A program made the position numbers. From assembly GCA_963706325.1 (NCBI GenBank), contig CAVPLT010000007.1:736001-800000 (forward strand): a DNA stretch of 64,000 bases, written 5' to 3'. The DNA comes from an uncultured Nitrospiraceae bacterium (lineage in GTDB: Bacteria; Nitrospirota; Nitrospiria; Nitrospirales; Nitrospiraceae). This document shows, piece by piece, positions 21,001 to 30,000 of this stretch (position 1 is the first letter of the stretch; each line of letters begins with the position of its first letter).

Positions 21001-24000
21001 GCCCCTACTCCCATTCAAAAGGCCGCCATTCCATTGGCGATGGAGGGCCGTGATTTGTTGGCCCAGGCCAAAACCGGAAGCGGGAAAACGCTGGCATTTC
21101 TCATCCCCCTGATCGAACGGGCGGTCAAAGAAGGCTGGAAATCGACCGGCTCCGCGTCGAACGCCTCGTCGCATGGTCCCGCACGGTTGCCGCGAGCGCT
21201 GGTGTTGGCCCCCACCCGTGAGTTGGCTCTCCAGATCGAAATGGAGCTGCGTAAATATGCTCCGCCGGCGGTCACGTCGCTGGCCGTGTATGGCGGGATT
21301 CCTATTGAACGGCATTACCGCGCTCTGCGGCAACCGCCGTTGATCGTGATTGGGACGCCAGGCCGTTTGTTGGATGTGGCGGGAACTCGCCATCTGGACC
21401 TGCGTGGCGTCGAGTATGTGGTGATGGACGAAGCCGACCAAATGTTGGATCGCGGCTTTCTGCGCGATATCCAACGTATTTTAAAGTTGCTGCCTGAGCA
21501 ACGGCAGACCATGCTGTTCTCGGCGACCTTTTCGCCGGAAATTCTGACGCTGGCGGAGTCGATGCTGAAAAATCCTGCTCGAACGTCGGTCGATCCGGGC
21601 GTCAATACGCCGACCACGATTACGCATGCATATTACGTGGTTCCAAGCGAATCATCGCGGGTGCAATTGATTCATACGTTGATTCAGCAGACCGAGCCCG
21701 GTAATCAGTCCATGGTCTTCTGCGATCAAAAGTACAAAGTAAAACGCTTGGCCGCCCGATTAGGTGGTGAGCCGGCGTCGGTGGGGGCGATTACAGGGAA
21801 CCATTCCCAGGCTCAACGCGAGCGTACCCTCACCGCATTCCGATCCGGGCGGTTGCGATCCCTCGTGGCGACCGATGTGGCGGCGCGCGGGTTGGATGTC
21901 CCATCCGTGTCGCAGGTCATTCATTATGAGCTACCGGCCAATCCCACGTCGTACGTCCATCGCACCGGGCGAACAGGCCGTGCGGAACGGTCCGGCGCGA
22001 CTCTCTTGATTCTGTCTCCGCAAGAGGAGCGTGAATATTTGGCAATGGTTCGCCGATTGCGAATTCAAACGAGTCGACTGACGCTTCCTACCTTCGCGGC
22101 GTTGCCCCCTGCCGTGAGTGAGCCTGAGTCGAACGGTCCCTCCAGGCATGAGGGCCGGAACCGTGAGGCTCGGCCGCGCAGAGCGGGAGAGCGCCCGAGT
22201 TCGATGCCTCAAGATTCGAGGGCTAGGCAGGGTGGTCGTGGCTGGCGTTCTGATCGCCCTGCCGCGCCACGTCGTGGCCAGTAGGGAGAGTTGTAGAACC
22301 GCCGTGTGCGGCAGGGATTACTATACTGGTGGATTGAGGAGGAGCGCCAATGAGACATGGATGTCACCTATTCGTGGGCTTGGTGATAGCCTTGGGCAGC
22401 GGTCAAGTATTCAGCGGGGGAGCCTATGCTCAAAGCGATGTGACAATCGCCGACGGCATGAAGGTATCGCTGGAATATACCTTGACGCTTCCGGACAAGT
22501 CCGTCGCCGATTCGAATGTCGGCCAGGCGCCCATCACATTCGTGCAGGGGGCTCATGAGATTGTCCCTGGGCTGGAGAAAGCCCTTGATGGGATGAAGGC
22601 CGGCCAAAAGCGGCGCATTGATGTGGCGGCACAGGATGCCTATGGGCCCTACAACAATAAGTTGAGACAGTCTGTCGACAAGGACAAGCTTCCGAAGGAT
22701 GTGAAGATTGGAGATATCTTGCAAGCCGCGGACAATCGATTGGTGAAGGTCCTGGAAGTGAATGAGAAAAAGGTGCTCATCGATCTCAATCATCCGCTGG
22801 CGGGAAAGACGCTCACCTTCGATGTGAATGTTATTAAAGTTGAAAAGGGGGATGCATCGGACGCTCCCGAAAGCAAGACGCCCTAGTTCCTCTTAGTTGT
22901 TCACCAGATGGGCGGGCCAGCCGGCGAAAACGCCGGCTGTGCTTCGCGCCGGTGTGGTGCTCTCCGTATTGCCGTGACCGTCAGCGTCACGGCCGCAAAG
23001 TGCGACTCGACGATTCCCTCAATGACATAGGCTTGGTTCTGGGCCAGCAGGTGGCATGTCTTCCGATACAGGTCCGGGAAGATAGTCGCATCGTACAACC
23101 CGGTCAGGTCCTCGAAGCTAACGAACTCCATGGGGTTGCCCTGCTTGGTGTGGATGACCTTCTCCGTGATCAGCACACCCATCATGGTGATTGAACGGCC
23201 GATATGCTGTGTCATGTCACGGGCGGCAATCGTATCAGGCGGAATCTGCGCGATGGGAACCAAGGCCAGCGGGTGGCACCGGAGGGGAAACCCGAATGCA
23301 TCGATCTCTTGTGCGATCAGCCGAGACGGCCCATATTCCGTCGGAATAGGCAGGTAGCCGGGAGATGACGGATGTCGCCAGGCCAGCAGGCGCCAGAGCA
23401 GGGCTGGTCTGGTGAGTTCACCGGCGAGTCGATCGAAGCAACCAGCTTTGATGAGCAGCCGAGCCTGCGCAGAATCGGGTTGGACTCGGTCTAGAAAATC
23501 CTGCAGCGACCGAAATGGGCCATCACTGGAGCGTTGCGCGATCAGGAACTTGGCAAGCTCTTGCCGGAGTCCTTTGATTTGCATTAATCCCACGCGAACT
23601 TTCTGTGCCTGACCCCAATAGGCCCATTCACTGTCATTGATATCTGGCGGCAGAATCGTCAACCCCATCCGTCGTGCTTCCGACACATAGGCAAACGTCG
23701 AGTAGAATCCGCCCTGATTGCTGATGACTGCGGCGATGAATTCCGCCGGGTAGTGGGCACGGAGATAGGCGGATTTGAAGGATACCTGCGCGTAGCTAGC
23801 CGAGTGAGGTTTGCAGAAGCTATAACCGGCAAAACTCATGATCATGGCCCAGATCTGCTCGATGACGGGCACGCTGGCTCCACGAGCCAGGGCGCCCGAA
23901 CAAAATTGCCGCTGGTAGTCGTGGAGCTGTCGTTGTTTGTGTTTCTTGCTGAGCACTTTTCGTAATTGATCGCCGTCCGCGAGCGAGAATCCGCTTAATG

Positions 24001-27000: not shown

Positions 27001-30000
27001 TGACACTTCATGCAATGGGGTGCGTGAGCGTGCGGCCGGTGCGAGGCCGACCGGTTGATGACGGAGACGAGGGTCGGCCAGGCGCGCGAGCGCCAGTTCG
27101 AACGACGGCACCGTCAGGCACACAATCTGGCGATCCATAGATTCACTAGCACCGGCGAGAAGTTCTATTGCTTACAGTAGCGAATGACGCCGATGACGAG
27201 GCCTTCAATGCGCAGCGAATCGGTCGGTTTGACCGTAATGGACTTCATCGTGTCATTGGCCGGGCGTAGTTCGATGGTCGAGCCTTTACGGTAATAGGTT
27301 TTGATGGTGGCATCGTTGTTGACGATCGCAATCACCGTCTGGCCGTTTCGAGCCGTACTCTGTTTTTGGACGATGACGAGATCGCCGGGGAGAATCCCTT
27401 CATCCCGCATCGACTCGCCCTTCACTCGTAGCGCAAAGGTTTCCCCGCGACCTATCATGCCGGGAGGAACTTCGACGAGTTCGGTTTGGGGAATGGGTTC
27501 GATAGGATCGCCGGCCGCTACCAAGCCGGCCAGGGGAATATGCGCTGAGGCCGTGAGGTGATCGATTGCCAATCGAACGGCAAACGGAATCTTATGTGTG
27601 CCGATTTCGTAACGCGCGATGGTCTGGCGGGTCGTTTTCAGCCGGTCGGCAAGCTGATTCTGGGTAAGTCCAAGAGCCTGACGGGCCTTCTTTAGGTCGA
27701 TCGCATGCATGTAACGAATCGTTACATAGCGGGAGGGGCCTGTCAAGAGGAGGTGATCCGGTCGGCGGACATGCTAAGATAGCCAAATGTCCTCTTTCAA
27801 ACTCGAAGCTCCCTTCAAACCCTGTGGTGACCAGGGCCAAGCCATTGAGAAGCTGACATCGGGGATCCTGGCTGGGAAACAGCATCAGGTCCTGCTGGGC
27901 GTCACAGGTTCCGGCAAAACCTTTACCATGGCGAATGTTATCGAACGCGTACAGAAAACGACACTCGTCCTCGCGCACAACAAGACCTTGGCGGGTCAGC
28001 TCTATCAGGAATTCAAACAGTTTTTTCCTCACAATGCTGTTGAATATTTCATCAGTTACTATGACTACTATCAGCCGGAAGCCTATATTCCACAGAGCGA
28101 TACGTACATTGCGAAGGATGCGTCGATCAACGATGCGATCGACCAGATGCGCCATGCGGCGACCACATCGCTGCTGCAGCGCAATGATGTGCTGATCGTG
28201 TCGTCGGTTTCATGCATCTATGGTCTCGGCTCGCCGGAGGTCTACCATGACATGTTGGTCTATCTTGAAGAGGGTATGGAGACGCGGCGTGAAAAAATCC
28301 TGGCGAAATTGGTTGATATTCAATATGCGCGCAATGACTTGGATTTCCACCGCGGGACGTTTCGCGCACGGGGCGATGTCATCGAGATTTTTCCGGCTTC
28401 CTCGGAAGCGAAGTCGGTGCGCATCGAACTTTTTGGCGATGTCGTGGATGCGATTCATGAAATCGATCCACTCACCGGTAAATCATTGGGCAAGTTGCCG
28501 AAGATCGCCATTTATCCGAATACGCACTACCTGATCGCGCCCGATCGCTATGAACGCGCAATCACGGGAATCGAAGAAGAATTGGATGCGCGAGTGGCGG
28601 CATTCAGAAAGAACGGCCAATTGCTTGAAGCGCAGCGGATCGAGCAACGGACCAAGTTCGATCTCGAAATGATTCGCGCCATGGGCTATTGCCACGGGAT
28701 CGAAAATTATTCGCGCCACCTAAGCGGGCGCGCACCGGGAGATCCTCCCCCCACGCTGCTGGATTATTTCCCCAAGGACTTCTTGTTGATCATCGACGAG
28801 TCGCACGCGACAGTGCCGCAGGTCGGCGGCATGTATGAAGGCGACTTTTCGCGAAAACGGACGCTCGTGGACTACGGATTCCGATTGCCGTCCGCTGTCG
28901 ATAATCGCCCCTTGAAGTTTGCTGAATTCGAACGGATGCTGAAGCAGGTGATCTATGTATCGGCCACACCGGGTCCCTATGAATTGAAGCATGGCAAGGG
29001 GGAGGTGATCGAGCAGATCATTCGCCCGACCGGCCTGATGGATCCCCTCATCGATGTGCGGGCGGCGAAGGGGCAGGTGGATAACTTGCTGGCTGAAGTA
29101 CACGCGGAAGCGGCGAAGGGAAATCGCGTTCTAGTCACTACCCTGACCAAGCGCATGGCCGAAGACCTCACGGAGTATTATCACGATCTCGGCGTGAAGG
29201 TGCGCTATCTGCATTCGGACATTAAGACGCTGGAGCGGGCGGAGATTATTCGCGATCTACGGCGGGGCCTGTTTGATGTGTTGGTCGGGATCAACCTGCT
29301 GCGGGAGGGTCTCGATTTGCCCGAAGTCAGTTTGGTGGCGATTCTCGACGCGGATAAGGAAGGCTTTCTCCGGTCGCATCGATCCCTGATTCAAACTGCC
29401 GGGCGCGCGGCGCGAAACCTCGATGGGCGCGTGATTTTTTATGGCGATACGGTGACCGATTCGATGCGGAGCGCCATTGAGGAAACCGGGCGTCGGCGAC
29501 ATATCCAAGAGGCCTACAATACCGCTCACGGGATTACACCGGAAAGCATCAAAAAAAGTATCCCCGCGCTGGAATATGCAGCTGCCGAGATGGATTACGT
29601 TCAACTGGACATGGCGGCTGAAGCGGCCGCCCCCTATAATACCGGCGAGGATGTCGCGCAGGTGGTACAGCGGTTGGAGGTGGAGATGAAGGCGGCCGCG
29701 AAGAAGTTAGAGTTTGAGCGGGCAGCCGAACTGCGGAATCGAATCAGAGCGCTGAAGCTGAAGGTATTAGAATTGGCACCATAGGGCCGTGGGCGAGCGA
29801 GAGTGAGTCTCACCTTACATCTGCTTATAGAGATAGGCGCCGAGTAACATTCCCAGCACGCTGAGCAGGCTGACTTTAATGCTGAAGCCGAAGGTCAGTT
29901 TGAGAAGGACAAGGTCAATGGTCAGCGGAGGGTTGATTCCAGGCGAAAAATTACTGGCAAAGATGTTTTGAATGGTGCCGTTCGGGGCCATTACCCGAAG

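Follow-up and report, generated by a model that had tools for sequence, protein, structure and literature searches.

Small S24 regulons that leave out recA are already known for HdiR, FddR and Deinococcus (PMC8565304, PMC13148647, PMC9578287). FddR of Francisella (PMC13148647) and HdiR and UmuDAb (PMC8565304, PMC9578287) are S24 proteins of minimal, autoregulated mutagenic-polymerase circuits without core SOS genes, like the repressor described here, and the FddR site GTG-N11-CAC (PMC13148647) has the same length, 17 bp, as its operator. FddR and HdiR cluster among phage repressors and UmuDAb with UmuD, whereas the best tree puts the peptidase domain of the Nitrospiraceae protein among canonical LexA; diverged FddR copies retain one motif, whereas the Nitrospiraceae paralogues change operator and residues jointly. 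The host-encoded non-canonical LexA of Bacteroidetes (PMC8565304) also joins a CI-like N-terminal domain to an S24 domain and controls error-prone polymerases through a fixed-spacer palindrome. Its regulon includes recA, its motifs are different and it carries an extra C-terminal helix, whereas the Nitrospiraceae repressor has a C-domain that passes the LexA model, leaves recA without a box and in its predicted structure ends on a strand. As a functional class, the non-canonical phage-like SOS repressors (a CI/Xre N-terminal domain on S24, chromosomally encoded) fit this repressor, and their use of an own palindromic operator at their own and at error-prone polymerase genes appears to be matched.

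Like the imuA-imuB-dnaE2 cassettes, which can be split, the operon in the window (the whole stretch of 64,000 nucleotides analysed, on contig C7) has a lexA gene at the head of a mutasome with both imuB (inactive Y-family) and dnaE2; it differs in lacking imuA and in a full-length ImuB. The Nitrospiraceae side has an Xre DNA-binding domain, the N-domains of cassette LexAs being left out of this comparison. In Deinococcus, recA is under separate control, as it would be in Nitrospiraceae. Geobacter sulfurreducens has twin LexA proteins, reportedly of the winged-helix type. Their operator (Jara 2003; PMC6511836) differs from the Nitrospiraceae box. Operons of iRadA-PPB2-PolB2 linked to lexA, for which the accessible part of the source gives no operator (PMC11791011), are headed in some genera by the main repressor copy (PPB2 start MGRT) and are absent from this genome. 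The features of the locus are given in Table 1.

Table 1. Features of the repressor-mutasome locus (positions in the window)
Feature	Position	Strand	Remarks
dnaE2-like gene for a second C-family polymerase of up to 1019 aa	22901..25960	-	abuts imuB
imuB-like Y-family protein, 393 aa	25957..27138	-	profile match; 26 nt behind repressor
Xre-HTH/S24 repressor gene, P0001, 181 aa	27165..27710	-	HTH_3 and Peptidase_S24 profile matches
17-bp palindromic operator	27710..27726		TGTAACGATTCGTTACA on - strand; its final A also opens the start codon; kept in 124/126 related loci
Candidate extended -10 element TG-T-AACGAT	27718..27726	-	in operator left half; proposed from spacing
-35 hexamer TTGACA of repressor promoter	27741..27746	-	TTGAC 20-22 nt start-to-start from box in 123/124 boxes
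uvrB, divergent neighbour	27787..29784	+	TG-C-TAAGAT of its own at 27772-27780, 6 nt before ATG

P0001 combines an Xre/434-type helix-turn-helix with a LexA-like S24 domain. With canonical LexA it shares the S24 C-domain, the Ser-Lys dyad (Ser100-Lys137) and the Ala-Gly cleavage site (Ala66-Gly67), and it passes TIGR00498 with 123 bits (cut-off 110.95); residue 39 is the His variant. The Ala-Gly, catalytic Ser and catalytic Lys motifs were present in all 124 repressor rows of the alignment. It departs from canonical LexA in lacking the winged-helix N-domain, for which PF01726 gave no match anywhere in the 4.24-Mb genome, and in the box, found at 0/30 recA regions. The N-domain is predicted to fold into four helices without a wing, and its search in the ESM Atlas returned generic HTH_3 only (scores <0.9). 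An MqsA-like identity was dropped, the TIGR03830 match being far under cut-off; the operators of MqsA may resemble the box. The genome has two lexA genes, one on C4 and one on C7 in the window, and the profile search agreed with the survey's finding that both encode HTH_3 plus Peptidase_S24; no box accompanies a third S24 gene (C5:6904). The start proposed at Met13 of the listed ORF (ATG at 27710) is common to homologues, and the TTG listed as start at 27746 belongs to the -35 hexamer. Across relatives, the repressor copies neighbour uvrB, modABC and the recA region and are chromosomal, outside prophages.

The ImuB-like protein lacks the acidic catalytic motifs present in the genome's dinB. 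The dnaE2-like product was 30% identical to the other DnaE (C6) and its DnaE profile matches fell under the equivalog cut-offs, an assignment at family level; its translation may in fact begin six codons downstream, at an ATG. For imuA, the genome was searched with PF00154 and not with a dedicated ImuA model; apart from recA, a single weak match, radA-like, came up. The position of uvrB, 77 nt from the repressor start, was as reported. As a repressor target it was rejected, its distance to the box (about 70 to 234 nt) not being kept among 15 loci, and it probably lies outside this regulation.

Exactly two perfect TGTAAC-N5-GTTACA sites occur in the genome (C4:462407 and C7:763710, the window operator), both finishing on the A of an ATG at a lexA start, the count given by the survey. 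Two further sites had one mismatch and 48 had two, much as with control gaps of 3, 4, 6 and 7 nt, which gave no perfect and 28–42 two-mismatch sites. The outer halves of the proposed operator stood, but its free centre did not: the five bases in the middle are constant and themselves palindromic, so that the consensus TGTAAC(C/G)ATT(G/C)GTTACA is a full 17-bp palindrome. A single box common to both copies is likewise unsupported: the centre is CATTG in the C4 copy and GATTC in the window copy, and this inner base pair tracks residue 39. Among the 126 related loci, those without the operator behind TTGAC were L163, with repressor and cassette, and L154, which was masked. The start codon lay at most 3 nt away in 121/124, and the gap from TTGAC to TGTAAC, earlier put at 17 or 18 nt, was 15–17 nt in 123/124 boxes and 19 in one. 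Base changes were symmetric between the halves across the 124 boxes, bearing out the joint change of half-sites.

The candidate -10 element lies 17 nt from the -35 hexamer and has 3/6 consensus bases; the promoter scan did not flag it. From this layout the repressor mRNA would be leaderless; genome-wide, leaderless genes showed a slight excess only (1.1% vs 0.6% at 6 nt). The arrangement had been likened to phage cI, but in Nitrospirota and Acidobacteriota the lexA genes of the winged-helix type have the same TTGAC-operator-ATG order, and a near-leaderless layout is therefore no cI trait. In two RNA runs both contigs were present at small shares, and neither run was informative on transcription start or expression.

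In this genome, no box was found before recA, the two uvrA genes, ruvA, recN, ssb, dinB or radA, in line with the survey; the direct scan of uvrA, ruvA, recN and ssb promoters was confined to this genome. A matrix scan gave 31 sites above 11 bits, against 9–75 for permuted matrices, with the top non-lexA site at 16 bits. The candidates C6:34258 and C7:109992 failed the test for TTGA plus box, and among the matches listed, the one- and two-mismatch sites C4:25716, C7:59234, C2:150861 and C7:678458 had no fitting promoter or target. The C4 copy heads two small ORFs.

A regulon of only lexA and its adjacent operon, as first claimed, holds for this genome and fails in relatives. The pattern search of 56 genomes gave 98 matches (reversed control, 0), of which 89 start with TTGAC: 66 at repressor genes, 17 at imuB(-dnaE2) and 6 at one family of small ORFs (~118 aa; unnamed clusters only in the ESM Atlas). 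The non-repressor share was thus 23/89, none at recA. Another 20 non-repressor candidates included nine at imuB, five at dnaE2 and one at a zinc-ribbon-like ORF preceding imuB-dnaE2. Since boxes precede unlinked, stand-alone imuB-dnaE2 and dnaE2 and the small ORF, the repressor would act in trans on unlinked targets. In 30 recA upstream regions, 22 from repressor-bearing genomes, the best score was 3.1 of about 31 bits. The possibility that transcription from the main copy runs on into recA was discarded, as opposite-strand genes intervene and recA has its own promoter, which carries a conserved element CTA(G/T)G(T/C)T. Seven of nine additional one-mismatch sites in relatives had neither TTGA plus box nor a target; the others were L291, at dnaE2, and L290, which holds imuB-dnaE2 and missed the pattern. 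Three TTGAA matches are probably due to chance. In G047, G062 and G080, whose assemblies are incomplete, a box was found ahead of imuB-dnaE2 and a repressor was not detected.

Over the 124 repressor-operator rows, four residue-base pairs (residues 27, 29, 39 and 40) were coupled without exception, each change occurring 2–4 times on the quick/FastTree tree, numbers that do not suffice for a sign test. His39 went with inner G..C in 17/17 rows and Arg39 with C..G in 102/102. The coupled residues align, in a weak match, to the recognition helix of the 434 repressor and the loop behind it, as judged by the DNA contacts of that protein. In genus g8, imuB follows a His39 copy and dnaE2 an Arg39-type box. 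Duplicate repressor copies seem to retune their operator via single amino-acid changes, and the two copies of this genome may form separate circuits.

We consider it likely that a LexA-like self-cleaving repressor with a 434-like Xre helix-turn-helix controls lexA-imuB-dnaE2, with recA outside. A dimer on the palindrome would occupy both the -10 element and the start point of a sigma-70 promoter and so silence its own (near-)leaderless mRNA together with the downstream mutasome. Upon DNA damage, RecA filaments would prompt the repressor to cleave itself at Ala-Gly, and the mutagenic polymerases would then be produced, while recA and excision and recombination genes would stay outside the circuit. 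The family-wide chromosomal copy (Arg39, CATTG box) would govern unlinked mutasome genes in trans, and extra cassette-borne copies such as that in the window (His39, GATTC box) would have a shifted operator preference. From binding, repression and start site to paralogue insulation, we infer these steps from sequence; RecA-stimulated autocleavage and damage induction are suggested by the conserved residues. The palindrome might instead be read by another factor or be a plain conserved promoter, the S24 protein being a bystander or not damage-responsive: its left half would also serve as -10 region, which would explain part of the conservation, and in G061 (99% complete) imuB-dnaE2 still has a box in front with no repressor detected. 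RNA polymerase, however, would not account for a mirror-image right half or symmetric changes, the box bases are coupled to helix-3 residues of the repressor and its cleavage residues are invariant, which leaves this reading very unlikely. That both paralogues bind both boxes, as one common regulon with a tolerant centre, is unlikely but has more in its favour. The C4 and C7 sites share 15/17 bases, each scores 20–21 bits on the other's matrix and is still second-best in the genome, and Arg39 operators can vary at positions 4, 5, 10 and 13. Against it, positions 7 and 11 shift only together and with residue 39 (17/17, 102/102, 5/5), and the stand-alone imuB/dnaE2 boxes seen are all C..G, even where a His39 copy is present.

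For its origin, we tentatively propose, at rather less than even chances, that a minimal 434-like Xre domain replaced the winged helix of a canonical LexA in an ancestor of the Nitrospira-like nitrifiers, with a near one-residue-one-base code and duplicates acting as orthogonal damage switches. A peptidase nearest to canonical LexA hints at such a swap: C-domain identity was 37–52% to 45 canonical LexA against 25–38% to 13 phage repressors, the best tree nested 21 repressor rows among canonical LexA (SH-aLRT 92; S24 trees were quick/FastTree, with Bacteroidetes non-canonical LexA left out), LexA and UmuD ranked first among PDB matches, and of the 86 nearest representatives scanned 67 had PF01726 and only three, unrelated, HTH_3. 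The whole protein could also be a captured phage CI-like repressor, as with HdiR and FddR, without any swap. Its N-domain resembles CI/434 and the phrog_4 match spans the full length. AU tests failed to reject a clade of the peptidase domain with all sampled phage CIs (p 0.095) or with five Firmicute phage CIs (p 0.052), but rejected a clade with the canonical LexA of the family itself (L237-L239; p 0.036), for which reason no LexA donor is singled out. The identities, tree, PDB ranking and representatives oppose capture, as do an N-domain predicted to span just some 53 aa with hardly any linker and viral contigs that gave no relative in a search sensitive to close relatives only. Unlike phage CI, the locus has a single operator and its divergent gene is uvrB, with no cro-like gene. 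We regard capture as doubtful.

A literature search found neither the 17-bp operator nor the Xre-type S24 repressor of the Nitrospira lineage in print, nor any other operator and regulon of the DNA-damage response in Nitrospira-like nitrite oxidisers or comammox relatives, for which this is the first candidate. Nitrospira and its kin appear to hold mutagenic polymerases off with a self-cleaving repressor and to leave recA free, an independent case for the view that SOS control has the silencing of error-prone polymerases at its core. The natural series of repressor-operator pairs yields precise predictions on specificity change after duplication. If the swap is true, there is a route to non-canonical LexA besides phage capture; if the switches are orthogonal, imuB and dnaE2 of one mutasome could be under different paralogues, as in genus g8.

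The repressor was present in 83/121 genomes of the family; two of the 83 had a strong and four more a weak match to winged-helix LexA, which stands in its place in some genera. In the sister family it was found in 1/12 genomes (G261). In other Nitrospirota families the peptidase part alone matched, and none of 35 other S24 loci had the box within three mismatches, in agreement with the survey. These comparisons support a lineage-specific operator of the Xre-type S24 repressor that lies over the promoter and is absent from recA and core repair promoters. A few cassette copies (L112, L118) adjoin integrase-like ORFs.

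Within the window, the palindrome TGTAAC-N5-GTTACA occurred once, and the whole genome (96% complete, 8 contigs) contained two perfect sites, in each of which the final A is the first base of a repressor's ATG, in agreement with the survey's finding. Other gap lengths, used as controls, gave zero perfect sites genome-wide. The two repressors, one in the window and one on contig C4, both had the proposed Xre make-up (HTH_3 and S24) and shared 57% identity. Translation from Met13 was borne out: homologues began at the ATG at 27710, and the TTG start called by the ORF finder (27746) was the first triplet of TTGACA. 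The LexA winged helix had no match anywhere in this genome. A third, distant S24 gene encoded a protein with a weak Xre-like domain and 20% C-domain identity, and lacked the box; a 32-codon remnant matching the repressor C-terminus (59%) appeared to be the trace of a lost third copy. Two small ORFs followed the C4 repressor (81 and 60 aa, the latter with CxxC pairs). The start of uvrB also looked leaderless or nearly so, with TG-n-TAAGAT 6–10 nt 5′ of the ATG in most of 15 loci.

Coordinates of the features (window positions unless a contig or locus of this genome, G000, or of another genome is given)
Feature	Location	Strand	Remark
Repressor gene	27165-27710	-	HTH_3 + S24
imuB	25957-27138	-	
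dnaE2	22901-25960	-	
uvrB	from 27787		divergent to repressor-imuB-dnaE2
uvrB start region	27772-27789		
Palindrome	27710-27726		
recA promoter element	G000:C4:498159-498189 (L005); recA loci L051-L079		shared pattern
Third S24 gene	G000:C5:6580-7230 (L004)		
Repressor remnant	G000:C4:19408-19503		
Two small ORFs	G000:C4:462993-463398 (L001:7993-8398)		
Methyltransferase gene	L094:2501-3934		genome G007
Broken repressor copy	G092:C2:103506-104034 (L244)		

Of the loci fetched, 126 distinct ones covered residues 15–170 and 90 nt upstream; they are best hits and were not sampled at random. Of these, 124 had the box (exceptions: L154, masked, and L163, none). The box is palindromic and 17 bp long; six of its positions never vary, and the central one is T or A. 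TTGAC began 20, 21, 22 or 24 nt 5′ of it in 31, 81, 11 and 1 loci, respectively; the order TTGAC, palindrome, ATG described earlier was retained, but not the 17/18-nt gap before the palindrome. Genome-wide TTGAC-to-−10 distances peaked at 17- and 18-nt spacers, which would place the −10 hexamer at box positions 4–9 (AACGAT here), behind a TG at −15/−14. A promoter scan missed this hexamer, which agrees with the consensus at 3/6 positions. Position 5 kept its A while the mirror position 13 was variable, as expected if polymerase needs that base. In 80 loci the start codon began with base 17 of the box; in 41 it came 2–3 nt later and in three further off. This leaves no space for a ribosome-binding site before the repressor ATG, and a leaderless start is predicted. 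The mRNA of lambda cI is leaderless, and a likeness to it had been claimed. However, the layout seen here recurs at lexA genes of the winged-helix type, both in this phylum and in Acidobacteriota, and is therefore no evidence of cI ancestry. Those genes (L225-L245, L191-L199) showed TTGAC-operator-ATG without a ribosome site, and their operators are candidate SOS boxes; in L237, GTGTAC-N4-GTACAC ended one base 5′ of the ATG.

The best sequence evidence that the repressor itself binds the box was the coupling of residues and bases across 124 rows of repressor and operator. Operator positions 7..11 were G..C with His39 (17/17 proteins), C..G with Arg39 (102/102) and A..T with Pro40 (5/5). Arg29 accompanied G..C at positions 4..14 (8/8), Lys27 accompanied TATC in both half-sites (13/13), and the sole protein without Arg28 had TAT..ATA. 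Mapped on a tree built from the C-terminal part, every pair showed two to four changes, which is not enough for a sign test. The coupled residues aligned (E 0.009) with the recognition helix of the 434 repressor and the loop behind it, the region through which that protein contacts DNA. The two copies had been assigned one shared box; the outer TGTAAC-N5-GTTACA is indeed common, but the inner part tracks residue 39 (His39/GATTC in the window copy vs Arg39/CATTG in the C4 copy), so they may be separate circuits. Even so, each copy's site still reached about 20 bits when scored with the matrix of the other copy. In G007 and G064, imuB lay without dnaE2 behind the His39 copy, and dnaE2 lay elsewhere behind a C..G box.

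A search for promoter plus box in 56 genomes, picked for the repressor or for membership of the same genera, gave 98 matches (reversed control: 0). Six were repressor sites read in reverse and three started with TTGAA and had no target; the 89 TTGAC sites lay at repressor matches (66), before imuB (17, with dnaE2 following where the contig extends far enough) or before a single small-ORF family (6). Twenty near-consensus sites away from repressor matches, chosen among 150 of 378 matches, preceded imuB (9), dnaE2 (5), a small ORF ahead of imuB-dnaE2, a cut repressor gene, a methyltransferase gene and a small ORF (one each), and two had no clear target. Most mRNAs of non-repressor targets have predicted leaders, which argues that the palindrome acts in trans as a promoter element and not as a translation signal. 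As counter-evidence, G061 (99% complete) carried a box in front of imuB-dnaE2, although no repressor was detected in that genome. The main copy in some genera headed an operon of Rad51-like, MGRT-start and PolB genes, matching the gene order iRadA-PPB2-PolB2 reported in PMC11791011; the two small ORFs behind the C4 repressor lead into it in other genera, and the operon is absent from this genome. The methyltransferase (N6/N4 DNA type) gene lay behind TTGACA plus box. A family of ORFs of 107-120 aa stood directly behind the box in L277-L282 and L099, and in several of them translation would start where the box ends; they had no Pfam match and only unnamed Atlas clusters.

None of these relatives' sites, whether pattern matches or near-consensus, lay at recA, uvr or ruv genes, and none of 30 recA upstream regions (22 from repressor-bearing genomes) exceeded 3.1 out of about 31 bits. 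In this genome, a matrix scan found no third site above background; across 2.5 kb before recA, both uvrA, ruvA, recN, ssb, dinB and radA the best score was 11 bits, upholding the reported lack of a box at recA, uvrA, ruvA, recN and ssb. A regulon of lexA and lexA-imuB-dnaE2 only thus fits this genome but not its relatives, where unlinked imuB, dnaE2 and small ORFs are also included. The recA promoters had CTA(G/T)G(T/C)T-N16/17-GTATAAT in place of TTGACA (28/30 loci). This pattern matched 48 times in 47/61 family genomes (including the unpublished G053; reversed control: 6), 47 times adjoining recA matches, and formed a single strong site in this genome. It is possibly a recA-specific regulator site or a fixed weak −35.

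Repressor matches at E 5e-60 or better were found in 83/121 family genomes (including the unpublished G006); one more had a broken copy (stops/frameshift; genome 95% complete) and nine matched the peptidase part only. Named records of close relatives were Nitrospira, Nitrospiraceae and Nitrospirales. Across 201 genomes sampled from the phylum, full-length matches were limited to the family, as had been claimed, except for 1/12 genomes of the sister family. PF01726 was present in 14/121 family genomes, and just two of nine strong matches co-occurred with the Xre form, which suggests that the latter has largely replaced canonical LexA in the family. In L100-L104, the main copy lay behind modABC-like genes; recA followed 2.6 to about 15 kb downstream, in the same orientation and beyond a stretch of unrelated genes.

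The repressor passed the LexA model, and sequence and fold searches ranked LexA top and lambda CI far lower. In the predicted structure, four N-terminal helices would lead into the S24 core with almost no linker. Among the best 150 representatives of 1.84 billion proteins, 86 were scanned, with short ones and most family pieces left out: 67 had PF01726, four HTH_3 (one being this repressor family) and 15 neither. A quick tree of 84 C-domains placed 21 family rows as one branch (SH-aLRT 93) among canonical LexA (92). After removal of four long or broken rows, AU tests rejected joining the family to its own canonical LexA (p 0.036), but did not reject joining it to the full set of phage repressors (p 0.095) or to a subset of five (p 0.052). 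We favour an Xre domain swapped onto a LexA peptidase. Other LexA-like peptidase domains with HTH_17 or HTH_3 N-domains (L227; P0205, P0242, P0256) fell outside this family's group, and N-domain exchange may be recurrent.

The operator and repressor lineage are, on these comparisons, real, and the literature searched contained no earlier report of this operator or of any SOS box from Nitrospira, though one might exist in subscription papers, motif databases or bioRxiv supplements. 'Nitrospir' was absent from the text and the one supplement file searched of PMC8565304 and from the supplement of PMC13148647. Phage-like SOS repressors are known, as are small S24 regulons that centre on error-prone polymerases and leave out recA (PMC8565304, PMC13148647, PMC8072749, PMC9578287, PMC11791011 and PMC6511836). 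The overall design is thus precedented; what is new is that the replacement is lineage-wide, that an Xre domain sits on a LexA-like peptidase and that residues and bases follow so clean a code. The repressor is predicted to work like LexA, yet is no canonical member. A dimer on the −10/+1 region would block polymerase, and RecA-stimulated cleavage at Ala66-Gly67 by Ser100/Lys137 would free the promoter; imuB-dnaE2 (or PolB2) would then be made, and autoregulation would reset the switch. Cleavage and damage induction are expected because of established S24 biology and the invariant residues. ImuB lacked the acidic motifs, which the unregulated dinB product kept.
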